From Ignavibacteria bacterium (GTDB lineage: Bacteria; Bacteroidota; Ignavibacteria; Ch128b), in assembly GCA_026415235.1 (NCBI GenBank), contig JAOAHM010000062.1:32788-96787 (forward strand): 64,000 nt of DNA. The letters are read 5' to 3'. A program made the position numbers and the translations under genes. Under the pieces are notes generated by a model that saw nothing but the letters and a program-made list of their open reading frames with translations, was not told the DNA's origin and did no database searches. Shown piece after piece: positions 1 to 57,869 of the stretch; the stretch's first letter is position 1; the number at the start of each line of letters is the position of its first letter.

Positions 1-2538
1 GTTTCGGCAATTGGATATGAGAAGAAGATAATAAAAAATGTTAAAGTGTCTGTTGATTTTACCACAAGAATAAATGTGGAACTGAATGAGGAAGCAGTTA
101 CTCTCCAAGAAATTGTAGTTGAAGCTCAATCGCCTTTAATAAGAGAAGATTTAACTTCTACGCAATCAACAATAGATGCAGGACAGATAGATGCATTACC
201 AGTCGAAAGTGTTCATCAAATATTAGCATTGCAAGCTGGAATTACTCAAGGTGTAGGAGGTGAATTACATATTCGTGGTGGTAGAACAAATGAAATTCTC
301 TACACGGTTAATGGTGTATCTATTTCAAATCCATTTGATAGCTCACCTATGGTCGAGATTGCAACAAATGCTGTTCAAGAAATTTCTGTTGTGAGCGGAA
401 CATTTAACGCTGAATATGGGAATGCATTAAGTGGAGTTGTTAATACAATCACAAAGGAAGGAACTCAGGAATATAAAACTCATCTTTCATTTTATACTGG
501 AGATTTCTTATCAACTCGAAAAAATATTTTCTTTAATGTTGATGATGTTGAGCCATTAAGTAATAATGTAACTGAGCTCACCTTTAGTGGACCTTTTCCG
601 TTTTTGAAAAATAATCTTCTCTTTTTTGTTTCGGCAAGAAATGAAAATAATAAAGGTTGGCTCTTTGGAGTTCGACAGCATATGCCTTGGGATTCAGTTT
701 ATATTAATCCTGCAAATCCAAATGATATTCGAATTTCAAAATCAGGTGATGATGCAATAGTACCAATGAATCCAAGTAGAAAATTTAGTGGAACAATAAA
801 ATTGACATTTAAACCAACCTCAACAATAAAAATCAATTACGATTTACTCTACTCAGATAACTATTTCAAATATTATTCTCATGATTTCAAATACAATCCA
901 GAAGCAGATTATAATTATTACGAAAAAGGTTACATCAATTCTTTAGATTTTAGACATGCAATTAGTAATAGAACTTTTTATTCGCTCAAATTAATGTACA
1001 ATTTCAACGACTACAAACAATATCTTTATCCTTTACTTGATCAGAATGGTAATGCAGTTGATTACTATCCAGGTTTGGGAACACAGAATTTAAAACCAGA
1101 TCCAAGATATCAACCAATAGAAAAATTGACACGTCCTGTTACATACACTTTTTATTTTGGCGGAACAAGGAATGGTCACAGTTATGAACGTGCAAGAACT
1201 TATGGATTGAAATTCGACATGACAAGTCAAGTTACAACCGAGCATGAGTTAAAATTTGGTGCTGAATATAAATCTCACATTCTTGATTACGAAAGTTTTA
1301 CGATACAAAGAGATACTGTACGATATCTTGTTCCAACCATTCCAGATTTAACAACACCATATCACGATTTGTACACAAAGAAACCAGTTCAATTTTCAGC
1401 TTATATTCAAGACAAAATGGAATATGCTAATTTTATAATGAACATTGGCTTAAGATATGATTACTTTAATTCAAGGTCTAAATATTCAACTAATACATTC
1501 TATCCTTCACCAAATGACCCAGCACTACCAGTTTATATCGACAAGAATTCAATCCTTGCTGATGCAACACCTAAACATCAATTAAGTCCAAGATTTGGTA
1601 TATCGTTTCCAATAACAGATCGTGGAATAATTCACTTTAGCTATGGTCATTTCTTCCAGATGCCACCATTCCAGTATTTGTATACAAATCCAAATTTCAA
1701 ATCAAGTTATGCGGTAGGTACGCCAATCTTCGGTGATGCCAATTTGAATCCCGAAAAAACAGTAACTTATGAAATAGGTCTACAACAACTTTTACTCGAT
1801 GATTTGGCTATGACTGTTACAGGTTACTATAAAGATGTTCGTGATTTGCTCGCACTTCAAACAATTCGTGTTAGTAGTGATAGAACTTATCTAAAATATG
1901 TAAACAAAGATTACGGTAATATTAAAGGAATCACTCTTTCACTTGTGAAGAGAAGAACACCTGCAAGTCCTCTTGGAGTTACTGTTGATTATACATTTCA
2001 AGTCGCGGAAGGGAACGATACCGATCCCGATGCATTCTTCCTTGATTTATCCTCAGGTAGACAGAGCGAAAAAATTCCTGTCTTCCTTGCATGGGATCAA
2101 ACTCACACTTTAAATACAACCTTTACTTTTGGTAAGATTGATAATTGGACAATTACAGTGGTAAACCGATTCGGAACTGGATTACCTTATACTCCTCAAA
2201 TAACTGGTAAGCAAGTCTATGTTCGAACAAATAGTGGTAGAAGACCAACACAATTTTATGTTAATCTTTTCGCTGAAAAAATCATGAAAATATTTGGTGC
2301 AAGACTCACTGTGTTTGCTAAGATTTATAACCTCTTTGATAATTTAATCGAACGACTTGTTTATGACGATACAGGAAGAGCGACTTATACATTACTTCAA
2401 ACAAGTGGAGCTACAAAGTCAGCCAAAGAATTATCAGATAAAATACCATTGGTTCGTCCACCTGAAGAATATTTCAATCGTCCACATTATTATCAACCTC
2501 CACGAGAGGTACGAATTGGTTTTGAAATTGATTTCTAA
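1..2538 (+). CDS. TonB-dependent-receptor-like outer-membrane beta-barrel (cassette 1, gene A); 5-prime end lies upstream of the window
   Basis: Frame 1 is open from base 1 (VSAIGYEKKIIKNVKVSVDFTTR...). It aligns with the intact paralog at 36719..39562 (SVVGYQKKSITDVRVNVDFTTR...). There is a plug-like block LHIRGGRTNEILYTVNGVSISNPF and a long strand-rich body. The C-terminus ...PREVRIGFEIDF ends in an aromatic residue, as in OM barrels. Confidence 0.8.
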   Translation, partial: VSAIGYEKKIIKNVKVSVDFTTRINVELNEEAVTLQEIVVEAQSPLIREDLTSTQSTIDAGQIDALPVESVHQILALQAGITQGVGGELHIRGGRTNEILYTVNGVSISNPFDSSPMVEIATNAVQEISVVSGTFNAEYGNALSGVVNTITKEGTQEYKTHLSFYTGDFLSTRKNIFFNVDDVEPLSNNVTELTFSGPFPFLKNNLLFFVSARNENNKGWLFGVRQHMPWDSVYINPANPNDIRISKSGDDAIVPMNPSRKFSGTIKLTFKPTSTIKINYDLLYSDNYFKYYSHDFKYNPEADYNYYEKGYINSLDFRHAISNRTFYSLKLMYNFNDYKQYLYPLLDQNGNAVDYYPGLGTQNLKPDPRYQPIEKLTRPVTYTFYFGGTRNGHSYERARTYGLKFDMTSQVTTEHELKFGAEYKSHILDYESFTIQRDTVRYLVPTIPDLTTPYHDLYTKKPVQFSAYIQDKMEYANFIMNIGLRYDYFNSRSKYSTNTFYPSPNDPALPVYIDKNSILADATPKHQLSPRFGISFPITDRGIIHFSYGHFFQMPPFQYLYTNPNFKSSYAVGTPIFGDANLNPEKTVTYEIGLQQLLLDDLAMTVTGYYKDVRDLLALQTIRVSSDRTYLKYVNKDYGNIKGITLSLVKRRTPASPLGVTVDYTFQVAEGNDTDPDAFFLDLSSGRQSEKIPVFLAWDQTHTLNTTFTFGKIDNWTITVVNRFGTGLPYTPQITGKQVYVRTNSGRRPTQFYVNLFAEKIMKIFGARLTVFAKIYNLFDNLIERLVYDDTGRATYTLLQTSGATKSAKELSDKIPLVRPPEEYFNRPHYYQPPREVRIGFEIDF

Positions 2539-2559
2539 ATCATTGAGGAGTGTTTAATC

Positions 2560-5500
2560 ATGAAATTCTTCTTACTTCAAATTTCTTTTTGCTTTCTAAT
2601 TTCAATGAGTCTTTTAGTTGCTCAGACAAATTCAAGTAAACAAAATGAACATCAATCGGTTAAGAATTTAATCAATACTGTTGATAATAAATCATTAAGC
2701 ACAAAGTCATTTACAACAATTCAAGATTTCCAGAAAGGAGTAATAAAAAAGCTTGAAAAGATAAAAGCTCATAAAGATCGTAAGTACTACTTCATGAATG
2801 GAAATAAAATTAGCACTAATATCTACAATTATGGTGGTATTGCACCTGGCTATGGATTGCTTCGCAATGTGAATAATGTAGTCTGGCGTGGTGTTTCCTA
2901 TGTTTTTCAATTTTGTCCATTTGTAGCTGCTTCAGTTCCAAGTGGATATGATTCGACAAAAAGGTTACATATTGTTTCAGATGGATTATGGGATTATCCT
3001 AATTTAAGAGATGTAAGTCCTACGGGAGATACTCTTTGGGCATGGCAACCACTTCCTGGTTATGCTGACCCAAATCAAGAATTTATGGCTTCAAATCCTG
3101 CACCTGATAAAGATAATGATGGCAAACCAGATTCCTGGCCCAGAGAATGGTACAATCCAACTCTTGGAAAATATGTCTGGCCTGGTTACTTAGCTCAAGA
3201 TGCAACAAATGCAGACCTTGAAGTTTTCTGGGCAATGGACGATAGAGACAATTCTGAATTCCCTTACTGGCCCTTTGTAAAAGATTCAACAAGAAGAGGT
3301 TTAGGTGTTCAAGTAGATGGTAGAGCATTGCAATGGAGTAATGCTCTTGCAGAAAACACAATATTTTTTGTTTATACAATAGCAAATGTGAGTGACAAAA
3401 ACTTAGACTCAGTTTATTTTGGAATGTATGGTGACCCTGATGTTGGTGGTGGTTTACCCGCCGATCCAGGTGATGAAGTAAGAGATGATTTAGGTTTCTT
3501 TGTTGCACCACACAATTATTCTGTACCTGTTTATGCTCGAAGTATGATGTATTTGTGGGATAACGATGGCAAAGGTCATCTCGGTTTGCCAGTTGGATAT
3601 CTTGGTTGTAAATACCTGGAATCTCCTTCAAATCCTGGAAATAATTATGATGACGATGGTGATGGTTTAGTTGATGAAAAACAAGATGATGGAATTGATA
3701 ACGATAGAGATTGGAATCCACTTGTTGACGATGTTGGAATTGATGGAATTCCAAACACTGGTGATTTAGGTGAAGGTGATGGAGTGCCCACTCCGGGAAA
3801 AAGATTACCTGATGGCTCACTTGACCCACTTTATCCCGGTGAACCAAATTTCGAGTTAACTGACCTTGATGAATCAGATCAAATTGGTTTGACAAGCTTT
3901 AACAGTTGGACTTGGAATACAGATAAAGTTGCAAACGATGAATCGATGTGGTATCGAGTTCAAGCTGGTAATTTTAGTGATATTCGTCAACTTGAAGATA
4001 TTGTATTCATTTTTGGAAGTGGTCCAATTACTCTTTCAAAAGGCGAGATAAAAAGATTTTCAATGGCTTTACTTCTTGGTGAAAATTTAGATGATTTATT
4101 AACAACAGCAGAAACAGTTCAGAGAATTTACAACGCCAATTACAGATTTTTCCGTCCTCCGCTAAAACCAAATGTTGTTGCTGTTCCAGGTGATAGAAAG
4201 GTTACGCTTTATTGGGATTCAAGAGCAGAAGAGAGTATTGACCCAATTACAGGAAAGGATTTTGAAGGTTATGTCATTTATCGAAGTACAGATCCAACTT
4301 TTAATGATATTCAAACCATTACAGATGGTAAAGGAGCAAAATTTTTATATCAACCATTAAAAGATTTGCAAGGGAATGAATGCAGATGGGATGTTGATAA
4401 AAGACCTGAACCATTCAATGATAAAAATGGAAATCTAAAGTACGATGTTGGCGAAGAATATGTAGATATTAATGGAAATGGTCAGTGGGATCCAATCGCA
4501 CCTGATTATTGGAAAGGTTATCATCCTGTTCCTTATCAAGGTAGAGGTATTCAGTATTTCTTAGGGAACAATCGTGGATTGGTTCATTTTTATGTTGATT
4601 CAAATCAAGTAGTGAATGGTCAAACTTATTATTACGCAGTTGTGGCTTATGACCATGGAGACTCACTTGGAATACCACCAACTGAGACAACTAAGAAAAT
4701 CACTGTTGATCCTATTACAAACCAACTTCAATTCGATGTTAATACAGTTATGGTTATACCAGGACCACGAGCAAGTGGATATGTTGTAACTCCAACAAGC
4801 ACTAAGAGTTTAGTTCATGAAAGTGGAGTTGGAAATGGTGATGTAACATTGGAAGTAATTAACGATTTAATTGTAGAACAAAATTCAGAATTTAGATTAT
4901 TTTTTAGAGATACTTTAATTAGTGGTAATAGAAAAATTCCAGGCAAAAATTATTCTGTTTTGAAATTAACTCCAGTGATTGATAAAAACATCAGTTTTTA
5001 TGATACAAACTTCACAAAACTATCTTATCAAAACATAAGTGATGATAACTTTTTTGTTGTAAAAGATGAAAACGGAAATACTTATACAAAAAATATTGAC
5101 TATGTCGTTAACTTCGAAAGGGGAATAATTCGAAGAACTTCAACAAGCTCAATGGCAGTTAACAAAAAATATTCAGTTCAATATAGATACTATCCAATAT
5201 TTCAAAGTCAATTATTAAAAGGTGAAGATGGTAATCCTGTTTTTGATGGATTGAAACTAAAAATTGTTGATAATCCAGTTCTAAAAATTGACTCAATCAA
5301 AACAAACTGGATAAAAGGTAAGTGCAACTATACATTCAGAGTTGATAGAGCATCAATAGGTGGACGTATCATTCCAAATGAAGCCGATTACGAAATTCAT
5401 TTTTCTAATACATTTATCGACTCTGCAATGGTTTTGGTCTCAGGAAGATTAGTCAAAGTTCCTGTAAAGTATTCAGTAAAAGATGTAACTACTGGAGTTC

Positions 5501-6099
5501 CAAGAAATATTCTAACTTACTTAAAAGAAAATGCTCTCACCCGTGACTCAAATTACACTGCTGGTGAAGAAATTGTTTTCTTCAAACCTGGTTCAACTGG
5601 AAGAACAACTGATACAACAACATGGGGAGTAATTTTCTATGAACCAGCGGGAAAAACTCCAATTCCACCTTCAGCTGGAGATGTTTTCTACATCAGAACA
5701 TTAAGACCATTCAAACCTGCCGATGTATTTTATTTCAAAACAGAAGCATCAAAATTTGATGCAAACTTAGCAAAGTCAAGACTTGACGAAATAATCGTTG
5801 TTCCAAATCCTTATGTTGTTGTAAATGATATAGAACCAACGAATAAACTACCTGGACAAAATCGAGGTGAAAGAAGAATTTATTTTGAAAATCTTCCACC
5901 AGAATGTACTATAAGAATTTTCACTCTCGCAGGTGAACTTGTTCAAGTAATTCACCATTCTTCACAACTGGATAATGGAAGAGAGTTTTGGAATTTGTTG
6001 AACAGAGATGGATTTAGTGTTGCTTATGGAATTTATTTCGCTCACATCGAAGCTCCAGGAATTGGAGAGAAACTCTTAAAATTTGCAATTATTAAGTAA
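2560..6099 (+). CDS. Large secreted multidomain protein (cassette 1, gene B): DxDxDG-type acidic loops, FN3-like domain, T9SS-CTD-like C-terminus; family not recognised
   Basis: GAGGAG RBS lies 9 nt upstream of the ATG. Signal peptide MKFFLLQISFCFLISMSLLVAQ. Acidic loops include DKDNDGKPDSWP and DDDGDGLVDEKQDDGIDNDRDWNPLVDDVGIDGIPNTGDLGEGDG. FN3-like block VTLYWDSRAEE...GYVIYRS...NGQTYYYAVVAYD. Tail is VVPNPYVV...CTIRIFTLAGELV...GIYFAHIEAPGIGEKLLKFAIIK. It starts 21 nt after gene A. Confidence 0.75.
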   Translation: MKFFLLQISFCFLISMSLLVAQTNSSKQNEHQSVKNLINTVDNKSLSTKSFTTIQDFQKGVIKKLEKIKAHKDRKYYFMNGNKISTNIYNYGGIAPGYGLLRNVNNVVWRGVSYVFQFCPFVAASVPSGYDSTKRLHIVSDGLWDYPNLRDVSPTGDTLWAWQPLPGYADPNQEFMASNPAPDKDNDGKPDSWPREWYNPTLGKYVWPGYLAQDATNADLEVFWAMDDRDNSEFPYWPFVKDSTRRGLGVQVDGRALQWSNALAENTIFFVYTIANVSDKNLDSVYFGMYGDPDVGGGLPADPGDEVRDDLGFFVAPHNYSVPVYARSMMYLWDNDGKGHLGLPVGYLGCKYLESPSNPGNNYDDDGDGLVDEKQDDGIDNDRDWNPLVDDVGIDGIPNTGDLGEGDGVPTPGKRLPDGSLDPLYPGEPNFELTDLDESDQIGLTSFNSWTWNTDKVANDESMWYRVQAGNFSDIRQLEDIVFIFGSGPITLSKGEIKRFSMALLLGENLDDLLTTAETVQRIYNANYRFFRPPLKPNVVAVPGDRKVTLYWDSRAEESIDPITGKDFEGYVIYRSTDPTFNDIQTITDGKGAKFLYQPLKDLQGNECRWDVDKRPEPFNDKNGNLKYDVGEEYVDINGNGQWDPIAPDYWKGYHPVPYQGRGIQYFLGNNRGLVHFYVDSNQVVNGQTYYYAVVAYDHGDSLGIPPTETTKKITVDPITNQLQFDVNTVMVIPGPRASGYVVTPTSTKSLVHESGVGNGDVTLEVINDLIVEQNSEFRLFFRDTLISGNRKIPGKNYSVLKLTPVIDKNISFYDTNFTKLSYQNISDDNFFVVKDENGNTYTKNIDYVVNFERGIIRRTSTSSMAVNKKYSVQYRYYPIFQSQLLKGEDGNPVFDGLKLKIVDNPVLKIDSIKTNWIKGKCNYTFRVDRASIGGRIIPNEADYEIHFSNTFIDSAMVLVSGRLVKVPVKYSVKDVTTGVPRNILTYLKENALTRDSNYTAGEEIVFFKPGSTGRTTDTTTWGVIFYEPAGKTPIPPSAGDVFYIRTLRPFKPADVFYFKTEASKFDANLAKSRLDEIIVVPNPYVVVNDIEPTNKLPGQNRGERRIYFENLPPECTIRIFTLAGELVQVIHHSSQLDNGREFWNLLNRDGFSVAYGIYFAHIEAPGIGEKLLKFAIIK

Positions 6100-6121
6100 G
6101 TCATTCTTAAGGAGTTTTGAA

Positions 6122-7144
6122 ATGAAGAAAATTATAATCTTAATTCCATTGATATTTTTAATTTTAATTTGCCATGCATTCTCGCAAATTGGTGCAAGCT
6201 TAACTAAAACAGGAACAACAGCAGCGCAATTTTTGAAAATTGGAATAGGTTCGAGAGCATTAGGAATGGGTGGTGCCTTTGTTGCATCATCCAACGATGT
6301 TTCGGCGATTTATTGGAATCCTGCTGGAATTGCTTTAATTGAAAATCGTGAAGCTGCTTTTAATCATGTTGATTGGTTGATGGATGTTAGTTTTGATCAT
6401 GCATCTTTTGCGATGAATTTCGGTGATTTTGGAACAGTAGGCGCTTTCGTTGGAGTGATGTCCATGGGCGAAATGTTAGTTCGAACTGTTGAAAAACCTG
6501 AAGGTACTGGTGAATACTTTGGTGCTGGTGCAATGACAATTGGATTATCTTATGCAAGAAACTTGACGCAAGATTTTGCTATTGGATTTAATGCAAAATA
6601 CATTCGTGAATTCATCTGGCATGAAATTGCCCAAGGTTTTGCTTTAGATATTGGAACGCTTTATAGATTACAATTTCTAAACGAAACAAGACTTGCTGCA
6701 AGTATTTCAAATTTTGGTACAAAGATGAAACTTTCAGGAAGAGATTTACTTGTTCTAACAAATACAGGTCCTGGTGGTGCAAATATTATTAATACGGAAC
6801 ATCAAGTTGATGAATATGATTTGCCTTTGTTGTTCAGAATTGGTGTTGCAGTTGATGCAATTAAATCGGAACAAATGCGTCTAACCATCGAAACTAACGC
6901 AATTCATCCAAATGATAATACAGAATATTTGAACACAGGTTTTGAATATGCATGGAATGAAAAAATTTTCATTAGAGCTGGCTACAAATCTTTATTCGAA
7001 AGAGATTCTGAACAAGGTTTGACTTGGGGATTGGGTTTAAATTATCGTCTTGTTGATTTTGTTAATCTTAAGTTCGATTATGCTTACCAAGATTTTGGTA
7101 GATTGAAAAATGTGCATTATTTGACTTTAGGAGTAAACTTCTGA
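6122..7144 (+). CDS. PorV/PorQ-family (FadL-like) outer-membrane beta-barrel (cassette 1, gene C)
   Basis: AAGGAG RBS precedes ATG 6122; the track ORF starts at an in-frame upstream TTG at 6083. Signal peptide MKKIIILIPLIFLILICHAFSQ. Motif GSRALGMGGAFVASSNDVSAIYWNPAG is characteristic of PorV/PorQ-type barrels. C-terminus is ...YLTLGVNF. Confidence 0.7.
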   Translation: MKKIIILIPLIFLILICHAFSQIGASLTKTGTTAAQFLKIGIGSRALGMGGAFVASSNDVSAIYWNPAGIALIENREAAFNHVDWLMDVSFDHASFAMNFGDFGTVGAFVGVMSMGEMLVRTVEKPEGTGEYFGAGAMTIGLSYARNLTQDFAIGFNAKYIREFIWHEIAQGFALDIGTLYRLQFLNETRLAASISNFGTKMKLSGRDLLVLTNTGPGGANIINTEHQVDEYDLPLLFRIGVAVDAIKSEQMRLTIETNAIHPNDNTEYLNTGFEYAWNEKIFIRAGYKSLFERDSEQGLTWGLGLNYRLVDFVNLKFDYAYQDFGRLKNVHYLTLGVNF

Positions 7145-7427: not shown

Positions 7428-8285
7428 ATGAATAATCAATCCTTAGAGAGCTCTTATCAGTTTTGCTTAAATCTGGCAAAAAAACATTACGAGAATTTTC
7501 CTGTTGCTTCTATTTTAATTCCGAAGGAGAAAAGGAAATTCGTTGCGGCAGTTTATGCTTTTGCCAGAATTGCTGACGATATTGCTGATGAAGGAAATTT
7601 ATCAAACGAATTTAAAGTTACTCAACTGATTAAATACAAAGACATTTTTGTTAACAAGATTATCACCACAGAATATCCTTATCTCGAAGCGGTGTATGAT
7701 ACAATTCAAAAAAATAATCTGACCGAAAAAAATTTTATTAATCTTATTGAAGCATTCATTCAAGACAATCAAATAAATAAATACAAAACTTTTAGTGAAA
7801 TTTTTGAATACTGTTCTAAATCAGCCAATCCAATTGGAAGAATTTTACTTGAACTATTTGATATTCGAGATAATCAAGCATTAACTCACTCTGACGAAAT
7901 TTGTACAGCTTTACAGTTAACTAATTTCTATCAAGATTTGAGCATTGATATCAATCGAAATAGGTTTTATATCGCAGAGGAAATTCTAAACAAGTTTGAA
8001 CTTACTTTTGATGATTTAATCAATTTTAACCAAACAAAAATTATAAACGAAAATTTTAAATGGATGATGAAATACTTACTTGATGTGAATTATAAACTTT
8101 TTCAAAGCGGAGAAAATCTTCTGAAATATTTAAGTGGTCTATTCAAGTTTGAGATAAAATTGACAATTAACGGTGGCAGAGAAATATTAAACAAAATTAA
8201 GTTGGTTGAATACAACACATTCTTAATTCGTCCTACCCTAAAAAAATTTGATTGGATAAAAATTATTTTGAGAGGATTAGTTTAA
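7428..8285 (+). CDS. hpnC: Squalene/phytoene synthase family protein, HpnC-type (hydroxysqualene synthase)
   Basis: Asp-rich motifs YAFARIADDIADE and NFYQDLSID. It is the first of two tandem SQS/PSY paralogs followed by an FAD amine-oxidase gene, which is the hpnC-hpnD-hpnE order. Confidence 0.7.
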   Translation: MNNQSLESSYQFCLNLAKKHYENFPVASILIPKEKRKFVAAVYAFARIADDIADEGNLSNEFKVTQLIKYKDIFVNKIITTEYPYLEAVYDTIQKNNLTEKNFINLIEAFIQDNQINKYKTFSEIFEYCSKSANPIGRILLELFDIRDNQALTHSDEICTALQLTNFYQDLSIDINRNRFYIAEEILNKFELTFDDLINFNQTKIINENFKWMMKYLLDVNYKLFQSGENLLKYLSGLFKFEIKLTINGGREILNKIKLVEYNTFLIRPTLKKFDWIKIILRGLV

Positions 8286-9133
8286 TGGGCAGGTCAATTG
8301 AAGAAAACATAACAAGAAGAAGTGGAACAAGTTTTTATTACACTTTCATGTTTTTACCTAAACATCAAAAAAAAGCAATGCACACAGTCTATGCTTTTTG
8401 TCGCTTAACGGATGATATCGCTGACTCAGAAGACGAAACAAATGAAGAAAAACTTCAAAAGTTAGAAGAATGGAAAGAGGAATTATCAAATGCACTAACT
8501 CATAAATCGAAATACGAAATACTGAATCATTTAGCTGAGGTTATAAGAAATTTGAAAATGTCAGTTGAACCATTTTTTGATTTGATTGAAGGTATGAAAA
8601 TGGATTTGACGAAAAAACGATACGAAACTTTTGAAGAACTTAAACTTTACTGTTATCGAGTTGCATCAACTATTGGGTTAATGTCAATCGAACTTTTTGG
8701 ATATAAAAATCCTGCCAGCAGAGATTATGCTTATAACCTTGGAATTGCGATGCAACTCACGAACATTTTAAGAGATGTAAAAGAAGACATGAAACGAAAC
8801 AGAATTTATATTCCCAAAGAAGATTTAGATAGATATAATTATTCAGAATATGATTTGCTTAATCAAGTTCAAAACAATTCATTTAAAGAACTAATGAGAT
8901 TTGAAGCAGAGCGAGCTGAATATTTTTATAATGAAGCAAATAAATTTTTTCTACCAGAAGAGTACAAAGTGTTAGCTATGGGTAGAGCAATGCAAGAAAT
9001 TTATTGTAAAATTTTGAAAAAGATTAAAGAAAATAATTTCGATGTATTTAATAAAAACAATAATCTCAGCAAAGTAGAACGATTATTTTTAACCCTCAAA
9101 AATTACTTCAAGTATTCCTTCATAATGAGATGA
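8285..9133 (+). CDS. hpnD: Squalene/phytoene synthase family protein, HpnD-type (presqualene diphosphate synthase)
   Basis: Motifs YAFCRLTDDIAD and NILRDVKED. The likely start is ATG 8285, forming a TAATG overlap with the hpnC stop; the track ORF begins at 8252. Confidence 0.7.
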   Translation: MGRSIEENITRRSGTSFYYTFMFLPKHQKKAMHTVYAFCRLTDDIADSEDETNEEKLQKLEEWKEELSNALTHKSKYEILNHLAEVIRNLKMSVEPFFDLIEGMKMDLTKKRYETFEELKLYCYRVASTIGLMSIELFGYKNPASRDYAYNLGIAMQLTNILRDVKEDMKRNRIYIPKEDLDRYNYSEYDLLNQVQNNSFKELMRFEAERAEYFYNEANKFFLPEEYKVLAMGRAMQEIYCKILKKIKENNFDVFNKNNNLSKVERLFLTLKNYFKYSFIMR

Positions 9134-10413
9134 AAAAAGTAATCATTGTCGGTGGTGGATTAGCGGGAATCTCAGCAGCTATTCATTTGGTTGATAAAAA
9201 TTATGATGTAGTATTAATTGAAAGTTCGGCTCAACTTGGAGGAAGAGCAAAATCTTTTTTCGATGATGAATGGGGATGTTACATTGATAATGGGCAACAT
9301 ATCCTCATTAATGCTTACACAAATACAATTGAATTAATAAAAAAGATTGGCGCAGAAAAATTTTTCGATTTTCGGGATGATTTCGAGATTACTTTTCGAG
9401 ATAAAAATCTAAATGAATGGCGATTAAAGGTTAGTGAAAGTTCTAATTTGATTTTTGAAATATTCAAGTTTCAAAATTTAAATTTTATAGAGAAACTCTT
9501 TCTTATTTACTTCTTCGTTAAACTGAAATACATCAACATCGAACAATATCATGAATTCGATACTTATTCATTCCTGAAACAAAATTTTCAAACAGAAAAT
9601 GTGATAAATAATTTTTGGAGGCTCGTTGTTGAATCAGCATTGAATACTTCACTTGAGCAATCTTCGGCTAAAGTATTTCTAAGTACAATTAAGAAAATGT
9701 TTCTTGAATCCAAAAGCAATGCGAATATTATTCTTCCAAAAAAATCATTACACGAGTCTTTGATTAATCCTGCTGAAAATTTTCTCAATAGCAAAGGAGT
9801 AAGAATTATTAAAAACTATGTGGTAAATGAAATTAAAACTCAAGAAAATGTTGTGAGCGAAATTAAATCAAATTCAGGAGAGACTATATCAGGTGATTAT
9901 TTCATTTTAGCAGTTCATCCTTCAATGATTGGTAGATTAATTAAAAATTTTGCCGTGGATTTAAATTATCAAACGATTATCAATGTTCACTTTAAATTAG
10001 AAAATCAAACTTATAAGAATAAATTTTTTGCACTTTGGAATTCGGAAATTCATTGGGCATTCTTTCACGAAAATATTTTGACAGCTTTCAAAAGTTCAGC
10101 AAATGATTTATTAAGCTTAACAAACGATGAATTAGTTTCGATTTTTATTGATGAGTTAATTCAGTATTTCCCAGAATTGAGGAATGATTTAACAAAAATT
10201 CGTAGAAATAAATCAGATTATAGAATCATTAAAATCAAACGAGCAACTTTTATGTCCGATATTGCTTCAACAAAATCTCGACCAAAAATATTTACTGATT
10301 ACAAAAATCTCTTTCTTGCTGGTGATTATATTGAAACTGGTTTACCATCAACAATCGAAAGTGCTGTATTTAGTGGAAAGATGGTAGCAGAGAAAATTAT
10401 TAGTAATGCTTGA
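9130..10413 (+). CDS. hpnE: FAD-dependent amine-oxidase-family oxidoreductase, HpnE-type (hydroxysqualene dehydroxylase)
   Basis: N-terminal dinucleotide-binding motif VIIVGGGLAGISAA. ATGA overlap with the hpnD stop. C-terminal LAGDYIETGLPSTIESAVFSG is typical of this fold. Confidence 0.65.
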   Translation: MKKVIIVGGGLAGISAAIHLVDKNYDVVLIESSAQLGGRAKSFFDDEWGCYIDNGQHILINAYTNTIELIKKIGAEKFFDFRDDFEITFRDKNLNEWRLKVSESSNLIFEIFKFQNLNFIEKLFLIYFFVKLKYINIEQYHEFDTYSFLKQNFQTENVINNFWRLVVESALNTSLEQSSAKVFLSTIKKMFLESKSNANIILPKKSLHESLINPAENFLNSKGVRIIKNYVVNEIKTQENVVSEIKSNSGETISGDYFILAVHPSMIGRLIKNFAVDLNYQTIINVHFKLENQTYKNKFFALWNSEIHWAFFHENILTAFKSSANDLLSLTNDELVSIFIDELIQYFPELRNDLTKIRRNKSDYRIIKIKRATFMSDIASTKSRPKIFTDYKNLFLAGDYIETGLPSTIESAVFSGKMVAEKIISNA

Positions 10414-10448: not shown

Positions 10449-11348
10449 CTATCGGTGATATTTCATTTTCATGTAATCGAAAATTGCTTTGCTAATTGAG
10501 CCAATAATTTCTTCACCAATTTTTGAGTTTGATAAATTTTTGGTCATAATCACTAATATGTATTTGAAATTTTTGTGATAATAGATTCCCATCTCGCATC
10601 GTACATCATCAAGCTCACCACCTTTGCTTGCAAGAGTTATTTCATCATCAATTCCTTCTAAGAGTGGCGTTTGTTTAGGTATGCTTAAAATTTTTATCAC
10701 TTCCTTGTTTAATGAATCTGAAAGAAATTTTCCATTATAAATTATGTTGAGCAATTTTAGTTTATCTTCAGGTGTTGATAAATTTTCCTTACCAGCCTTT
10801 CGTGCAGCAAAGTCCATCATCTTTCGCTGTAGTTTTGTATTAAATAATCCGAGTTCCTGAATTGTTCGATTAATGTTTTCCATTCCAAGTGCATCAATTA
10901 ATATGTTTGTAGCTGTATTGTCGCTTTGTTGAATCATAAGAACCGCAAGATTGTAATAACTTAATCTCAGAGAATTAATATCAAAGTATTGAATTAAACC
11001 ACTTCCACCGACTGTGTAATTAACAGGAAGCATCTTATAAATATTCAGTTTTCCTCTTTCGTATTCTTTAAATAAATGAAGCAGTATTTCAATTTTAATC
11101 GCACTTGCTGTTGGAAAGATTTCTTTTTCATTGTAGAAAAACTTCTCTTCGTCATTCAAGTCTTGAAAAACAATTCCAATTGGGTAGGAGAAACTTGATA
11201 TTTTTGATTTAATAATGCTATCAATTTTAACATTTTGATTGTATCTCAATTCATTCGCATTGTCAGTATGTGAAGATTTATCAAAAGAATATGTGAGAGA
11301 ATTAAAATACAATACTAAGATTGAAAATATAATTGAATGAATTTTCAT
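10449..11348 (-). CDS. Class A beta-lactamase-related serine hydrolase (secreted)
   Basis: Signal peptide MKIHSIIFSILVLYFNSLTYS. SxxK motif (SAIK), SDN motif (QQSDNTATN) and a KGG variant of KTG (ASKGGE). Convergent with hpnE. Confidence 0.55.
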   Translation of the reverse strand: MKIHSIIFSILVLYFNSLTYSFDKSSHTDNANELRYNQNVKIDSIIKSKISSFSYPIGIVFQDLNDEEKFFYNEKEIFPTASAIKIEILLHLFKEYERGKLNIYKMLPVNYTVGGSGLIQYFDINSLRLSYYNLAVLMIQQSDNTATNILIDALGMENINRTIQELGLFNTKLQRKMMDFAARKAGKENLSTPEDKLKLLNIIYNGKFLSDSLNKEVIKILSIPKQTPLLEGIDDEITLASKGGELDDVRCEMGIYYHKNFKYILVIMTKNLSNSKIGEEIIGSISKAIFDYMKMKYHR

Positions 11349-19928: not shown

Positions 19929-20996
19929 ATGTTAAAAAATGAAATTCTAAATCTTCAAAAAGATGTTGTTTATCCTTCTATTACAATATTGATGCCCACT
20001 TCAAGAATAACAGTTGATACTAATAAGGAGAAAATTCTATTAAAAAATTTGATTAACGAGTTGGAGGAGAAATTAAAACATAAAGTTGATAAAAAGAACG
20101 CAGAAGTTTTATTACAAAAAGTTAGAGATTTAGCAAACGAAATTGATTTTTTTAACATGAATGATGGACTTGGAATATTCGTTAACGAAAAAAAATCATT
20201 CATCATAAAATTCCCATTTACTGTTCCTGCTCTGGTTGTTATTGACGATACTTTTGAGACAAAATATTTAATCAAACAATACAACCGTTCAATTGAATAT
20301 TATCTTTTGAATCTGAATGAGAAAGAAACTTCCTTGTTTCTTGGTTTCAATGAAATAATTGAACCAATTAAAAATGATGATTTTCCATTTTCCATACACG
20401 ACATTGTTGAAATTAGCTATGAACAAGGTACATGGCACTACGACTCAGCAATGATGGAAAAAGTAAAACAGTACTTACGTGAAGCAAATCGAAGAGCTAA
20501 AAATAATATTGAGAATGAGTCACCTTTAGTAATTGCAGGAGTAAACAAAATTGTGTCTCTATTTGAAGATTTAAGTGATTACAAGTTAATCATTGGAAAG
20601 ATTGAAGGAAGTTATGATTCAAAGAGTTTACACGAACTTGGTAAGAAAGCAAATGCAATTGTTCAAAAATATCTAAACGAAATTAGAGAAAAAGTATTTA
20701 AAGAATTTTTAGAAAGTTTTGGATATAAGAAAGCCACATTTGGATTATTGGATGTTTGGAATTTAGCCAATGAAGGTAGAATTGAAACATTACTCGTAGA
20801 AGAAAACTATCATCAACCTGCAAGATTTGAGGGAAATCAACCAATACTTGTGCAAGAAACAAATGATTCGTTACTCATAGAAGATTTAGTTGATGAAACA
20901 ATTGAGCTTGTTTTCAAGCAAAAAGGTAAAGTTTATTTTTATGAAGATGGAAGATTAAATAATTATTCAAGAATCGGCGCAATTTTAAGATACTGA
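19929..20996 (+). CDS. baeRF3-like protein (bacterial eRF1-fold family), function unknown
   Basis: TGGAGGAG RBS. N-terminal SITILMPTSRITVDTNKEKILLKNLINELEEKL resembles the baeRF3 signature (xSIYxPTHR...IxLKNLL). There is a central FETKYLIKQ...YYLLNLNEKETSLF block and a C-terminal DVWNLANEGRIETLLV block. Confidence 0.55.
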   Translation: MLKNEILNLQKDVVYPSITILMPTSRITVDTNKEKILLKNLINELEEKLKHKVDKKNAEVLLQKVRDLANEIDFFNMNDGLGIFVNEKKSFIIKFPFTVPALVVIDDTFETKYLIKQYNRSIEYYLLNLNEKETSLFLGFNEIIEPIKNDDFPFSIHDIVEISYEQGTWHYDSAMMEKVKQYLREANRRAKNNIENESPLVIAGVNKIVSLFEDLSDYKLIIGKIEGSYDSKSLHELGKKANAIVQKYLNEIREKVFKEFLESFGYKKATFGLLDVWNLANEGRIETLLVEENYHQPARFEGNQPILVQETNDSLLIEDLVDETIELVFKQKGKVYFYEDGRLNNYSRIGAILRY

Positions 20997-36718: not shown

Positions 36719-39562
36719 ATGCTAAACAAATACTTCTTTTCCTTCCTTACATTAGTTCTAATGGTATCCTATTTAATTGCAGGGAATACTGGCAAAATTG
36801 CTGGTAAAGTAATTGATAAAGAAACAAAAGAACCGATTCCATTTGCTAATGTAATCGTTGAAGGAACTCAACTTGGTGCTGCTACAAATCTTAATGGGGA
36901 GTTTGTTATTCTAAATGTTCCACCAGGAGTTTACACAGTAACAGCATCAGTTGTTGGTTATCAGAAAAAATCAATTACTGATGTTCGAGTTAATGTTGAT
37001 TTTACAACAAGACTCGAATTTCAATTAACTCAAGGCTCTATTGACTTACCACCTGTTATTGTTCAAGGTGAGAGAAATCCTTTAATCCGACAAGACCTCA
37101 CAAATCCTGTAGCTTCAATTACAAGTGATAAGATTGACGAATTGCCAGTGGATCAAATTGCCGATGTAATTAAGCTCCAAGCTGGTGTTGTTGTAGGTAA
37201 TGATGGTGATATTCATATCCGTGGTGGATATGGAAATGAAATCGCTTACACATTAAATGGAATTACATTAAATGACCCTTACGGTAACCGTAGGTCTGTT
37301 GGACTTGCAACAAATGCAGTTCAAGAAGTTTCTGTTTCAAGTGGAACTTTTAGTGCTGAATATGGAAATGCTCTTAGTGGTGTAGTTAATTATGTAACCA
37401 AAGAAGGTCCATCGAAATATACTGGAAGTATTAAAGCATATTCTGGTGATTATCTCACAAGTAGAAAAGATTTGTTTGAGAATATTGATGAGGTAAATCC
37501 ATTAAACAGAGCGAGAACTGAGTTTACATTTGGCGGACCTTTGCCTTTATTGTTTAGCAAAAGTGTTAACTTTTTCATTTCATCTGTTTATGAAGACTTC
37601 AAAGGTTCACTTTATGGAAAAAGAATTTATCGTCCTACTGATTCTTACTTAGAACGAAATAACTTCCGCTCTGGTGACCCAAGAAGTGGTAAATCTACTG
37701 ATCCATATTTCTTCAATCCTTACTCGAAAGATAGCTCTGGATTACCCACTGGTGATGGTGCGTGGGTTCCAATGAATTGGTCAAGGTCTTTCAATTTTCA
37801 AGGTAACTTGATTATAAAACCGCTTCCAACCATCAAATTCAAATATGAATATGTTTATGAAAAAGGTTCATCACAAGATTATGACAGGTCATACAAGTAT
37901 AATCCTGACGGAAGACCTACGAACTATTCTAATGGTTATATTCATGCATTTGATTGGACACATACAGTTTCAAACAACTTATTCTACACATTGAAGATGT
38001 CCTATTCGGATAATTATGCAAAAACATATTTGTATGAAAATCCTTTTGATGAAAGATATCTACCTTCCCTTTATGCAAGGTCATTGGGTAATACAACATT
38101 CTTGACTGGAGGAACAGATAACTCAAGATTTTACAGAAGAACACAAACCTTAGGTGTGAAAGGTGACTTAGTTGCACAATTGTTTGATGTTCATGAAATT
38201 AAAATGGGATTTGAAATTCGTAAACATAGATTGAATGTAGAAAGTTACACCGTTCAAGTTGGTTATATTAATCAACAAGGTTTATTTACAACATTAACTC
38301 CAGCAACTTTACTTTATGACTCAGTTCAATTAGTAAGAAGAATTCCAAACGACACTTCTCTTTATACAAGTTATGAGCGATTACCTTTACAAGCAGCTGC
38401 TTACATTCAAGATAAAATTGAGTTAGCTTCTTCAATGATTTTAAATGTTGGTGTACGATATGAGTTTTTCAATCCAGCTGCTCAATACAATCCTTTTGTT
38501 AGCAAAGATTTGAGTGAATTAAAAGCAGGTTCAATTACAAAAAGCGCAGTTGATGCAAAACCAAAGCATAGATTGAGTCCAAGAGTTAGTGTCTCTTACC
38601 CAATTACCGATAGAGGTGTAATTAGATTTTCCTACGGACATTTTTATCAGATACCATCGTTGGCAAGCCTTTATCGAAATCCATTCTATTATGTTGCGAA
38701 CTTTGGAGAGAATCCAACTTTTGGAAATCCAAATGTAGAACCACAAAAAAGCGTTCAGTATGAGTTAGGATTACAACAACTTTTATTGGATGATTTGAAA
38801 CTCGAAGTGACAGGATTTTATAAAGATGTAAGTAATTACATTTATACTCAACAGATTTTCACAAATGAAGGGCGAGCATTTTATCTTTTAACAAATCTTG
38901 CGTATTCGAGTAGTAAGGGAATAACAGTCTCGCTACTTAAGCGCAGGTCACCACAAGATTTCTTCTCTGCATCTTTAGATTATACTTTTTCACTTGCTGA
39001 AGGTAATAGAACCTATCCAGCCGATGAAATTTTCTTTAGCGAAAAAAGTGGAAAACAAAGTGAAACATATCTTGTACCATTTAGCTTTGATAGAAGTCAT
39101 GTGATTAATGCAACATTAACATTTACAAAACCAAACAATTGGATTGCATCTTTTGTCGGTTATTTCCAGACAGGTACACCATACACACCAGTTTTTCCTT
39201 CGAACATAGTTGACATTACTTTTGAACAGAACTCTGCTCGTCAACCAATTCAATGGAATGTTGATTTTAAGTTCGAAAAATTCTTTATGCTCGGAAATTT
39301 GAAATTGTCTTTATTCGCTCAAATAGAAAATTTGTTTGATACTCAAAACGAACTTTATGTGTATGCTTCAACAGGAAGAGCGTTAAGTGCAATTGAAGAA
39401 AAAGATATTTCAATTGTGTTCTCCGATATGTTACGAAGAATTAATCGAGGTGATGCTGGATTAATTCCAAAGAAGGAAATCGAGCGCTATTACTCACTTC
39501 GACCTGAAAGGGTCAATAGACCAAGAGAAGTCCGATTAGGATTTCAAATAATTTTTAACTGA
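36719..39562 (+). CDS. TonB-dependent-receptor-like outer-membrane protein with N-terminal carboxypeptidase-regulatory-like domain (cassette 2, gene A)
   Basis: Signal peptide. The block GKIAGKVIDKETKEPIPFANVIVEGTQLGAATNLNGEFVILNVPPGVYTVTASVVGY is CarboxypepD_reg-like. Plug-like block IHIRGGYGNEIAYTLNGITLNDPY and a long barrel follow. The C-terminus is ...PREVRLGFQIIFN. Confidence 0.85.
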   Translation: MLNKYFFSFLTLVLMVSYLIAGNTGKIAGKVIDKETKEPIPFANVIVEGTQLGAATNLNGEFVILNVPPGVYTVTASVVGYQKKSITDVRVNVDFTTRLEFQLTQGSIDLPPVIVQGERNPLIRQDLTNPVASITSDKIDELPVDQIADVIKLQAGVVVGNDGDIHIRGGYGNEIAYTLNGITLNDPYGNRRSVGLATNAVQEVSVSSGTFSAEYGNALSGVVNYVTKEGPSKYTGSIKAYSGDYLTSRKDLFENIDEVNPLNRARTEFTFGGPLPLLFSKSVNFFISSVYEDFKGSLYGKRIYRPTDSYLERNNFRSGDPRSGKSTDPYFFNPYSKDSSGLPTGDGAWVPMNWSRSFNFQGNLIIKPLPTIKFKYEYVYEKGSSQDYDRSYKYNPDGRPTNYSNGYIHAFDWTHTVSNNLFYTLKMSYSDNYAKTYLYENPFDERYLPSLYARSLGNTTFLTGGTDNSRFYRRTQTLGVKGDLVAQLFDVHEIKMGFEIRKHRLNVESYTVQVGYINQQGLFTTLTPATLLYDSVQLVRRIPNDTSLYTSYERLPLQAAAYIQDKIELASSMILNVGVRYEFFNPAAQYNPFVSKDLSELKAGSITKSAVDAKPKHRLSPRVSVSYPITDRGVIRFSYGHFYQIPSLASLYRNPFYYVANFGENPTFGNPNVEPQKSVQYELGLQQLLLDDLKLEVTGFYKDVSNYIYTQQIFTNEGRAFYLLTNLAYSSSKGITVSLLKRRSPQDFFSASLDYTFSLAEGNRTYPADEIFFSEKSGKQSETYLVPFSFDRSHVINATLTFTKPNNWIASFVGYFQTGTPYTPVFPSNIVDITFEQNSARQPIQWNVDFKFEKFFMLGNLKLSLFAQIENLFDTQNELYVYASTGRALSAIEEKDISIVFSDMLRRINRGDAGLIPKKEIERYYSLRPERVNRPREVRLGFQIIFN

Positions 39563-39579
39563 ATTTCTTGAGGAGAAGA

Positions 39580-42500: not shown

Positions 42501-43140
42501 AAATCAAAGAACCGTTTGTCCATTTAGAATTACTATTGCAACTCAAGACTCAATGCTGGGCAGAAAAGCTGATTATATAATTTTTGAAGGAATTGCTGCA
42601 ACTCGAGGTAATGGTCGTTGGGATCCAGGTGAAGATATTATTTTCTTCCCAAGAGTAAGAGAAAGACTAAGAACTTCATATCAAATTACATTTTCTTTAC
42701 CTTCGGGCACATTCATCCCACCGCAAGGTGATGTTTATTATTTAAAGACGACAAAACCATTCAAAGCTGGAGAGAAATATTCTTTCAAGACAATTGGCGA
42801 AAAGTATGATAAAGAACTTGCTAAGAGTCAGCTTGAAAATATTTATGTAGTTCCAAATCCTTATGTCGCATATTCCGATGCTGAGCAACCAGCTCGTCAA
42901 CCAAATAGAAGAGGTGATAAGGTTATTCAGTTTAGAAATCTACCGAAAGAATGTACAATTAGAATTTATACTATTGCTGGTGAACTTGTTCAAACACTTT
43001 ATAAAAATGATGATGGTAGTATCATCAGTTGGGATTTATTAAGCTACGAAGGACAAAGAATTGCTTACGGTGTTTACATTTATCATGTTGATGCACCTGG
43101 AATAGGTGAGAAGATTGGTCGATTCGCAGTTATAAAATAA
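39580..43140 (+). CDS. Large secreted multidomain protein (cassette 2, gene B), paralog of 2560..6099
   Basis: GAGGAG RBS, with ATG at 39580 or 39583; the track uses TTG 39568. Signal peptide ...LILAINLIAQ. The blocks are collinear with the paralog: DKNGDGKPDSWP, VYFGMHGDPHVGG, DIGIDGIGPDSPNYPGPDYGEGDG, VTLYWDTRAEN...GYKIYRS...GITYYYAVVSYD, and the tail VVPNPYVA...CTIRIYTIAGELV...GVYIYHVDAPGIGEKIGRFAVIK. Confidence 0.75.
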   Translation: MMRKKIFISFILVLILAINLIAQKKDQYGNYILKELTEKQALELFGKPGERLAKALGNPKIIKESIIQGNKVKTVLFNYGSICAPNYLGNIADLVWNGLGYGFEFGPLAAAEVVNDRGDTLHIVDDSFIRTFQGDYNPAGTLKWGWLPKDGYVDPNQNEIARLNSPDKNGDGKPDSWPENWYNPGAGKYLWPAFLGDQATAPDEEVYFVIDDFTNAEFPYYPFPNDSSKRGLGLDMEVRVLQFNNPLAEDIIFLVYQTTNVSPKTLPRVYFGMHGDPHVGGPSNYNDDRAYFIPPLGPLADPYPQRARSMVYAWDDDMKGDGGKWCGYFGWKFLESPSQHTDVKDNDDDGITDESPFNDAGFFIDGVVYPLTYGISNLTKYTEVYGAPKPRWSGDEDGDWDPSIHDIGIDGIGPDSPNYPGPDYGEGDGKPTQAWYIDLNNNNKYDVGEPLSETRLPGYKWAGSEPHFGLRDISESDQLGLTSFHAAVYTNSLPNVPMNDELMWEWLSSETIDPNQELLNQPGDNVFNFGTGPFKLEPGETQRFSMCILFGENLNDLVLNAEISTRILEADYRFAQPPAKPIVYAVPGDGRVTLYWDTRAENSVDPLTLSKDFQGYKIYRSQDPKFSDVFKITDGNGVPYLGVPLFDPNTGKYAQFDLVDSLKGFHPVEYAGRGIKYWIGNNTGLVHEYVDSTVKNGITYYYAVVSYDGGSLVPGKELPPSECPMVISQDPITGELKFDVNTVMVVPGPRAKGTLTDLNKNINVEHLNGIATGRIFVKTYDSKAVKDNNVYIVEFTTNTKFNVLNETGVTDKIISKDTVLVNLSNQNILPGSVIVKDEAGNIVPSNKYIVNTISGKIRSANSGDLPAGKEYSVYYKYYPVYQSSNIKGEDTNPIFDGMRIFLYNDTLGIDRKNSGWAPGKKTNLRDTIIWVPRTVSPANPHLPTDLDFKIEFTSMDTTSTGKYSSPGDTVNNQSNQRTVCPFRITIATQDSMLGRKADYIIFEGIAATRGNGRWDPGEDIIFFPRVRERLRTSYQITFSLPSGTFIPPQGDVYYLKTTKPFKAGEKYSFKTIGEKYDKELAKSQLENIYVVPNPYVAYSDAEQPARQPNRRGDKVIQFRNLPKECTIRIYTIAGELVQTLYKNDDGSIISWDLLSYEGQRIAYGVYIYHVDAPGIGEKIGRFAVIK

Positions 43141-43157
43141 AATTATGGAGTTTGAAA

Positions 43158-57759: not shown

Positions 57760-57869
57760 AAGAAAATAAGAATTAATTTTGATTGTTAATTAATTGAGAT
57801 AGGGTGATTTTAGGTTAGGTCTTTAGTTAGTTCTTTATAAAATTTTTTGAAATAAAATTGGGAGGTACA

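Follow-up and report, generated by a model that had tools for sequence, protein, structure and literature searches.

A recurrent gene triad of Ignavibacteria and related phyla, combining a TonB-dependent transporter, a very large secreted protein and a PorV/PorQ-family barrel, as a candidate surface capture-and-uptake module

We describe a three-gene cassette that occurs twice in a 64,000-nucleotide stretch of DNA from an Ignavibacteria bacterium (GenBank assembly GCA_026415235.1, contig JAOAHM010000062.1, positions 32,788 to 96,787; this whole stretch is hereafter called the window, and positions in it are counted from its first base). In each cassette, a gene for a TonB-dependent transporter (gene A) is followed on the same strand by a gene for a very large, nearly all-beta protein (gene B) and by a gene for an outer-membrane barrel of the PorV/PorQ family (gene C). 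The A-B-C order is retained at nearly every locus examined in several phyla, and B ends in a tail related to the C-terminal domains (CTDs) that direct cargo proteins to the secretion system of type IX (T9SS). Taken together, these data suggest that A, B and C may well form one outer-membrane capture-and-uptake assembly, in which B would be exported by the T9SS, tethered to C and placed at the service of A, a proposal that we hold to be evenly balanced.

Results

The A-B-C cassette is duplicated in the window and conserved across phyla

Cassette 1 opens the window (Table 1). A1 is read in frame 1, which is already open at base 1, and the gene is therefore truncated at its 5' end. The gap between A1 and B1 measures 21 nt, with GGAG preceding the ATG of B1, and that between B1 and C1 measures 22 nt, with AAGGAG before the likely C1 start, the ATG at 6122; a signal-peptidase site is predicted for both B and C. 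These positions bear out the first-pass annotation, made earlier from the DNA letters, which had reported three tightly packed same-strand genes with a ribosome-binding site and a signal peptide on each of the two downstream ones. Scans for sigma-70 promoters and intrinsic terminators gave nothing that exceeds the shuffled background.

Cassette 2 spans positions 36719-44189 and shares with cassette 1 an identity of 40% for A, 40% for B and 49% for C. Its genes are packed in the same way, with gaps of 17 nt and 17 nt when the likely starts are measured from the preceding stop codons. In B1, B2, C1 and C2 alike, predicted cleavage by signal peptidase I leaves a Gln as the first residue (VA↓Q, IA↓Q, FS↓Q and FA↓Q), a feature described for Bacteroidetes as the 'Q-rule' (PMC5837995).

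With each species represented by one genome, a scan returned 327 stretches encoding B relatives, of which 79 loci were taken for study; their sources include Ignavibacteriota (Ignavibacteriaceae and Melioribacteraceae), Calditrichia, KSB1 and Kryptonia. Searches by tblastn with A, B and C placed a same-strand A directly upstream of B in 72 of the 79 loci and C directly downstream in 74 of them, and wherever the contig extends far enough, A and C flank B. Seven further loci, Rhodothermaceae and Marinimicrobia among them, keep the same order. The triad is present in Marinimicrobia, Caldithrix, KSB1 and a cultured strain of Rhodothermaceae; Roseithermus sacchariphilus RA (CP020382) is one carrier of it. 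Distant B relatives and B2-type genes also sit within an A-B-C triad. The survey thus shows B homologues next to TonB-dependent and PorV-like genes at nearly every locus examined, as the first-pass annotation had anticipated for other genomes. Being duplicated within the window and conserved in 72 to 74 of 79 independent loci, the arrangement is not due to chance.

At seven loci (L011, L012, L013, L016, L017, L066 and L078) two cassettes adjoin each other and converge, an arrangement suggestive of a functional link between the two paralogous systems. A variant order, B-A-B-C, was observed at one locus (L068, 7998-18859), where the extra B copy has no transporter or barrel of its own. Sediments, hot springs, bioreactors and, in the case of Marinimicrobia, the ocean are habitats in which the host organisms abound, and we expect the triad in the cultured Ignavibacterium album, Melioribacter roseus, Rhodothermus/Roseithermus and Caldithrix abyssi.

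B is a nearly all-beta protein with a tail related to T9SS C-terminal domains

B belongs to a large family. A profile search collected 7299 clusters (50% identity, E<=1e-3), 939 of which reach E<=1e-30; B1 has more than 1302 close homologues and the B2 subfamily more than 1276, with 'hypothetical protein' as the name of all homologues named by their source. B sequences are about 60% identical across families of Ignavibacteriota and are conserved over their full length across phyla. B1 matches no Pfam family and has no family-level match in NCBIfam, and sequence-profile searches of the PDB with B alignments of 12 and 91 sequences gave nothing better than E 0.02. None of these searches (Pfam, NCBIfam, PDB profiles) assigns B to a well-characterised enzyme family. 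The first-pass annotation had likewise left B without a named family, and all the features that it listed (DxDxDG loops, an FN3-like segment, several beta-rich segments, a CTD-like tail and the lack of a lipoprotein Cys) were found again here. Specifically, the only N-terminal Cys of B1 lies within the hydrophobic core of the signal peptide (ISFCFL), and B1 therefore has no lipobox.

AlphaFold2, supplied with the 91-sequence alignment, predicted a B1 model of almost entirely beta structure (pLDDT 86.7, pTM 0.81); the 12-sequence alignment gave a poor model (pLDDT 50), and Foldseek on that model is meaningless. The best Foldseek match of the 91-sequence model in the PDB is PorZ (5m11, E 1.1e-7, probability 1.0). 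The others, for which the aligned residues are not reported, are of the generic beta-supersandwich kind (N-terminal domains of GH94/GH116, GH174 and YidC P1), and from a predicted model they suggest, at most, glycan binding; weak matches to an S-layer protein and to adhesin repeats were also returned. The acidic loops, which read DDDGDGLVDE...DNDRDW...DDVGIDG...GEGDG, are probably calcium-binding, to judge from their sequence.

The C-terminal tail is the part of B that points to an export route. When the isolated tails were compared with NCBIfam models, the C-terminus of PorZ was matched at E 9.2e-5 by B1 and at E 2.7e-7 by B2, together with the C-terminal ends of PorU, of TIGR04183 (B2: 2.3e-4) and of T9SS-dependent M6-like models. 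Among 38 diverse members of the B family, PorZ is matched by 16, TIGR04183 by 7 (best 7.4e-10) and the tail of PorU by 7. In the PDB profile search, the B tail was aligned to the CTDs of PorZ and PorU up to the last residue (...RFAVIR versus ...KFAIIK), the only other matches being an Fn3-like protein and a weak transthyretin-like one (E 0.26). Other T9SS cargo proteins that bear a CTD can also be aligned with the last ~280 residues of B, and the type B CTD model CHU_C scores only 15 bits. The homology of the B tail to T9SS CTDs is thus well supported at the family level, the PorZ match of the model in Foldseek being a further line of evidence. Within the family, the mean frequency of the commonest residue per column is 0.61 in the acidic loops, the highest value, 0.60 in the CTD, where 19 of 101 columns reach at least 90% conservation, and 0.27-0.35 in the middle sandwiches. 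Since the CTD is conserved as strongly as the best segment of B, it fits a lasting binding role and not that of a discarded signal.

Outside the tail, the likeness to the two known attachment proteins ends for B1 and B2. PorZ consists of two beta-propellers and a CTD, and PorU carries a C25/gingipain-like peptidase domain. Against the PorZ model (NF052228, cut-off 260 bits) B1 and B2 show a tail-only match of 21-29 bits, and Pfam finds no Reg_prop repeats in them; against the PorU sortase model (NF033707, cut-off 420 bits) the match is again tail-only, at 16-21 bits, with no peptidase domain and an all-beta fold. Distant B relatives of 1350-1590 residues (P0139, P0143, P0144 and P0150; L080, 8001-12488) do carry Reg_prop beta-propeller repeats before the CTD and match the PorZ model at E 5.6e-18, and they still lie between transporter and PorV-like genes.

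Other identities were considered for B. Matches to the phage tail-tube model NF052337 cover ~60-75 residues of the beta-rich middle (residues 818-878 in B1), and we do not take them as a sign of phage origin. An S-layer protein or a sortase-like enzyme was rejected because of the high sequence conservation and the lack of a peptidase fold. A 270-residue ORF (open reading frame) runs antisense inside gene B (3083-3895, minus strand), and B genes elsewhere contain similar ones; the codon composition of B, and not a gene, is the most likely reason for it.

C is a PorV/PorQ-family barrel and A a TonB-dependent transporter

The model of the whole PorV family (NF033709, cut-off 90) is matched over its full length by C1 (232.7 bits) and C2 (205.7 bits); C1 also scores 39.1 bits with Pfam PorV and carries the N-terminal motif GSRALGMGGAF...IYWNPAG. 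Both proteins remain below the equivalog cut-offs: C1 scores 90.6 bits for PorQ (NF033711, cut-off 220), 87.8 for PorV (NF033710, cut-off 250) and 84.7 for PorV2 (NF052325, cut-off 325), and C2 scores 83.4, 82.4 and 71.8 bits for PorV, PorQ and PorV2, respectively. By these scores, C forms a branch of its own within the PorV/PorQ family. Its only relative among PDB structures is the PorV of Flavobacterium johnsoniae (6h3i_F, E 5.8e-10), and its match to Toluene_X, at 24.6 bits, stays under the cut-off of 29.7. The earlier placement of C with PorV and PorQ, instead of with plain FadL channels, is accordingly upheld.

Both copies of A exceed the Pfam cut-offs for the plug and the barrel of TonB-dependent transporters, with 44.8 bits (A1) and 45.0 bits (A2) for Plug (PF07715) and 103.5 bits (A1) and 97.2 bits (A2) for TonB_dep_Rec_b-barrel (PF00593). 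Within the window, A1 comprises the end of a CarboxypepD_reg domain, a TonB-box-like LQEIVVEA, the plug and a 22-strand-type barrel that finishes in ...GFEIDF. A motif E(E/I)VVxAERP, which resembles a TonB box by motif only, is conserved between CarboxypepD_reg and plug in nine orthologues. The first-pass annotation had seen plug and barrel features in A1 and had compared it with CarboxypepD_reg-type transporters: plug and barrel were confirmed, and the CarboxypepD_reg domain itself falls almost wholly outside the window. In a relative of the window with 91% identity (L084), the full-length A1 orthologue of 916 residues has CarboxypepD_reg, Plug and barrel. A2 and several A orthologues also match Pfam OMP_b-brl_4.

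A lies outside the SusC/RagA family as defined by TIGR04056 (cut-off 368 bits), to which A1 and A2 contribute 40.5 and 65.1 bits, respectively, over their N-terminal part only. Cassette 1 contains no SusD-like gene. The absence of a SusD-like partner, claimed at first pass, is confirmed by the lack of any SusD Pfam match in B and of any such gene adjacent to A.

Genes that accompany the triad

Of the 61 loci that extend far enough upstream of A, 46 carry there, at a distance of at most 3 kb, a gene for an FG-GAP-repeat protein ending in a CTD, and in 41 of the 46 it shares the strand of A (L082, L083, L085, L086 and L088 are examples of FG-GAP plus CTD upstream of A). In the closest relative of the window the FG-GAP gene (L084, 4600-6456, minus strand) is divergent and lies ~770 bp upstream of A; the corresponding site falls just outside the window. 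We regard this protein as a probable surface component and fourth member of the unit.

Enzymes directed at peptidoglycan are repeatedly found near the triad, in varying combinations; in several lineages they come after it, N-acetylmuramoyl-L-alanine amidases among them. A T9SS-secreted Amidase_2 protein follows C directly in Melioribacteraceae (L043, 7752-10313) and Marinimicrobia, and the triad of Rhodothermaceae has an Amidase_2 neighbour for which no CTD is recorded. Genes for a periplasmic M15 D-Ala-D-Ala dipeptidase and a CTD protein come directly after C in Caldithrix and several Ignavibacteria. S13 DD-peptidases, NamZ, S66 LD-carboxypeptidase, a GH18 protein with CTD and GHL10 complete the list, and the loci with peptidoglycan-directed enzymes beside the triad include L011 (12650-15564), L080, L082, L083 and L085. 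The commonest downstream neighbours in Ignavibacteria are housekeeping genes (EF-P, AccB/AccC, GuaA, GcvH and tetratricopeptide-repeat proteins); these were set aside as functional partners, being inherited by synteny.

In the window, cassette 2 is placed directly after mrdA (PBP2) and rodA, with a gene for an HhH-GPD glycosylase 4 nt downstream. The adjacency to mrdA-rodA is not conserved at three other B2-type loci and is therefore incidental; a meaning of this site was rejected. A gene for a TonB-family protein (Table 1) lies outside the operon and just upstream of positions 57858-60707, which encode a 949-residue protein that combines BNR repeats with a canonical Por_Secre_tail, the type A CTD of the T9SS. 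Together, the two genes indicate that both the energising and the secretion contexts exist in the organism.

Directly downstream of cassette 1, positions 7428-10413 hold two SQS_PSY-family genes and then an amine-oxidase-type flavoprotein gene, an HpnC/HpnD/HpnE-like trio for squalene synthesis. They are followed on the minus strand (10449-11348) by a gene for a secreted 299-residue protein of the class-A beta-lactamase family (PF13354, 181.6 bits), which occupies the same place in the closest relative. Further on, positions 19929-20996 encode a 355-residue protein resembling bacterial archaeo-eukaryotic release factors (baeRF family 3).

Table 1. Cassette genes, segments of B1 and the TonB-family gene of the window (nucleotide positions in the window; residues in the protein)
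Feature	Residues	Position	Strand	Remarks
A1, TonB-dependent transporter		1..2538	+	5' part cut by the window edge
B1, secreted, nearly all-beta multidomain protein	1179 aa	2560..6099	+	
B1 signal peptide	1-23	2560..2628	+	MKFFLLQISFCFLISMSLLVA↓Q, read from sequence; no lipobox
B1 N-terminal beta-sandwich	70-355	2767..3624	+	conserved W/P/D/E residues including DGKPDSWP and QWSNALAE; from alignments and model
B1 acidic DxDxDG-type loops	356-445	3625..3894	+	invariant or near-invariant D/G/E columns
B1 continuation of the sandwich	446-530			
B1 FN3-like domain with insertion	531-735	4150..4764	+	weak profile match to Fn3-like 3mpc over VDxxVxNGxxYYYAV; beta strands in the model
B1 further beta-sandwiches	736-1065			
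B1 C-terminal domain	1079-1179	5794..6099	+	T9SS CTD homologue of PorZ/PorU type, VVPNPY...KFAIIK
C1, PorV/PorQ-family outer-membrane barrel	340 aa	6122..7144	+	
A2, full-length paralogue of A	947 aa	36719..39562	+	CarboxypepD_reg, Plug and barrel
B2, paralogue of B	~1186 aa	39580..43140	+	likely start ATG 39580 after GAGGAG; ORF opens at TTG 39568
C2, paralogue of C	~343 aa	43158..44189	+	likely start ATG 43158; ORF opens at TTG 43152
TonB-family protein	219 aa	56709..57368	+	Pfam TonB_C, 75.8 bits

Discussion

A candidate capture-and-uptake assembly

The data presented above are compatible with the following scenario. B would be exported by Sec and then cross the outer membrane via the T9SS. 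By analogy with PorZ-PorQ and PorU-PorV, its CTD would stay uncleaved and bound to the cognate barrel C, so that B would be tethered at the surface without a lipid anchor. In those systems the PorU CTD is retained on PorV and the PorZ CTD on PorQ, and cognate PorV-like barrels have been proposed to protect CTDs from cleavage (PMC10202324). The B-C pair would stand beside or over A; the calcium-loop, beta-sandwich and FN3 domains of B would bind a macromolecular substrate and pass it, or fragments of it, to A, and A would import the captured material with TonB energy. Such an assembly would do the work of a SusC/SusD pair, with a barrel-tethered protein in the place that the SusD lipoprotein has in Bacteroides. 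A surface capture and uptake module of this kind had been suggested at first pass. Of that idea, the conserved neighbourhood, the lack of an enzyme family for B and the PorV/PorQ type of C have stood. That C would hold B is favoured indirectly by the strong conservation of the B tail and by its closeness to those of PorZ and PorU, two CTDs known to be retained. The surface location of B, its binding to C, the association of the pair with A and the import by A of what B has captured are inferred.

Several lineages have secreted peptidoglycan hydrolases near the triad, and on this weak evidence we tentatively put forward, while holding it rather doubtful, that peptidoglycan or other cell-wall debris may be what is captured. 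It is also conceivable, if rather doubtful, that the triad, usually with its FG-GAP CTD protein, represents an undescribed class of nutrient-capture machines in phyla of the Fibrobacteres-Chlorobi-Bacteroidetes (FCB) group other than Bacteroidia (Ignavibacteriota, Calditrichota, KSB1, Rhodothermales, Marinimicrobia and Kryptonia), built on a permanent CTD-barrel tether and perhaps devoted to the scavenging of peptidoglycan or necromass.

Several observations weigh against an assembly for nutrient capture. Typical nutrient loci include a regulator and degradative enzymes; both cassettes of the window lie in housekeeping surroundings, with neither a regulator nor degradative enzymes adjoining them. 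A peptidoglycan-directed gene occurs within 8-10 kb in only ~23 of 86 loci, a raw count, uncorrected for background and inflated by shared ancestry, that serves as a lead, and neither cassette of the window has such a neighbour, the sole candidate being the beta-lactamase-family gene mentioned above. Beyond PorZ, Foldseek gave only generic beta-sandwich matches and none at the level of an enzyme, and no ligand or binding site of B can be named from them. Finally, the B1 and B2 tails score 13.9 and 21.1 bits with TIGR04183, below its cut-off of 23, and their assignment as CTDs therefore rests on family-level and structural evidence.

Alternative explanations

The same genes could instead be lineage-specific parts of the T9SS, with B and C as attachment-complex-like units that process or anchor other cargo and A as an accessory barrel and not a nutrient importer. 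The closeness of the B tail to those of PorZ and PorU, the PorZ-like propellers of distant B relatives, the membership of C in the PorV/PorQ family and the housekeeping context of these highly conserved proteins all agree with this explanation, and the two paralogous cassettes per genome, adjacent and convergent in seven loci, recall the two attachment-complex pairs. It is nevertheless unlikely in our view: B1 and B2 have neither propellers nor a C25/gingipain-like peptidase domain in a model that is nearly all beta, their whole-protein scores fall far under the PorZ and PorU cut-offs, and C stays under those of the PorV and PorQ equivalogs. In addition, A is invariably present, with plug and TonB-box-like motif intact, and we know of no TonB-dependent transporter that is a component of the T9SS. 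That duplication and divergence into several phyla have left the A-B-C order strictly intact argues for a functional coupling with A, and hence against the view that B is chiefly a surface coat, an adhesin or an enzyme (S-layer-like or glycan-active) anchored by C, with A merely co-expressed and not directly coupled to it. B is made up of Ig-like, FN3 and beta-sandwich domains, as adhesins and the accessory parts of glycoside hydrolases typically are, the weak Foldseek matches include an S-layer protein, adhesin repeats and GH174, GH94 and GH116 domains, and an FG-GAP protein with CTD is a frequent neighbour; yet B matches no catalytic family, and its identity across families of Ignavibacteriota, together with its conservation across phyla, is unusual for coats and adhesins. 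We judge this explanation to be quite improbable.

Very improbable, in turn, is that A exports B in the manner of Oar, leaving C to hold B with no need for the T9SS. To our knowledge, a folded protein of 1180 residues is far larger than anything that passes a 22-strand barrel, the tail of B is recognisable as a T9SS CTD, and further T9SS cargo is encoded by the organism. The position of A, always directly upstream of B, and the OMP_b-brl_4 matches of A2 and several orthologues would suit an exporter, as would the Oar-like succession of CarboxypepD_reg, Plug and barrel; this architecture, however, is the commonest among import transporters of Bacteroidetes and does not discriminate between the two directions (PMC6434023).

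Implications of the capture-and-uptake proposal

If the proposed assembly of A, B and C is real, it would connect two so far separate fields of study, TonB-dependent uptake and type IX secretion, and it would extend the use of PorV-family barrels as permanent, cargo-specific surface anchors well beyond PorU/PorV and PorZ/PorQ. It would explain surface capture complexes that lack SusD-type lipoproteins in phyla related to Bacteroidota, and would provide a first functional handle on thousands of 'hypothetical' proteins of ~1200 residues. A dedicated route for the uptake of cell-wall debris would, in addition, bear on the recycling of bacterial necromass.

Comparison with known systems

In the literature searched, we found no description of the A-B-C arrangement or of its inferred function. 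The parts are known, namely the TonB-dependent transporter, the T9SS CTD cargo and the PorV/PorQ-family barrel, and so is the retention of a CTD on a PorV-like barrel. The obligatory union of a transporter, a CTD protein and a private PorV-like barrel, the B family itself and the wide spread of the unit outside the classical Bacteroidota models are what that literature does not describe.

The more distant parallels concern single components. Oar of Myxococcus xanthus is a TonB-dependent transporter required for the secretion of PopC, and is thus functionally tied to one protein (PMC6434023); A has the same architecture, whereas PopC has no T9SS CTD, no PorV-like barrel is involved, and there is no sign here of export through A. 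With BamG-BamH of the Bacteroidota BAM complex the cassettes share a faint BamG match of C2 (20.5 bits versus a cut-off of 250); the partners of BamG are lipoproteins, and the cassettes have no BamA context. SprB-SprF of Flavobacterium johnsoniae, with its type B CTD cargo, is likewise a giant T9SS cargo beside a dedicated barrel, and SprF/PorP-like barrels are thought to handle or anchor one cargo each (PMC10202324). In contrast, C belongs to the PorV/PorQ family and not to PorP/SprF, the CTD of B resembles type A, PorZ and PorU, and a transporter is part of the unit.

A closer likeness in gene order is offered by the SusC/SusD (RagA/RagB) systems and utilisomes of Bacteroidota, where a CarboxypepD_reg transporter is likewise followed by the gene for a surface partner, which in our case is a predicted one. 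The locus is repeated in paralogous copies, and secreted hydrolases join the triad in some lineages, again as in SusC/SusD. However, A is outside the SusC/RagA family, and neither a SusD gene nor a regulator is adjacent to the triad; SusD is an alpha-helical lipoprotein of ~500 residues, whereas B has ~1180 residues, is all-beta, lacks a lipobox and comes with its own barrel.

Finally, in the attachment complex of Porphyromonas gingivalis, PorZ-PorQ and PorU-PorV likewise combine a large CTD-ended surface protein with a PorV/PorQ-family barrel. B differs from them in lacking the two propellers of PorZ and the C25-like peptidase domain of PorU, and C in scoring below the PorV and PorQ equivalog cut-offs. 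Moreover, B and C share one operon with a TonB-dependent transporter, and the cassettes belong to Ignavibacteriota, Calditrichota, KSB1, Rhodothermales and Marinimicrobia instead of to the classical model organisms.

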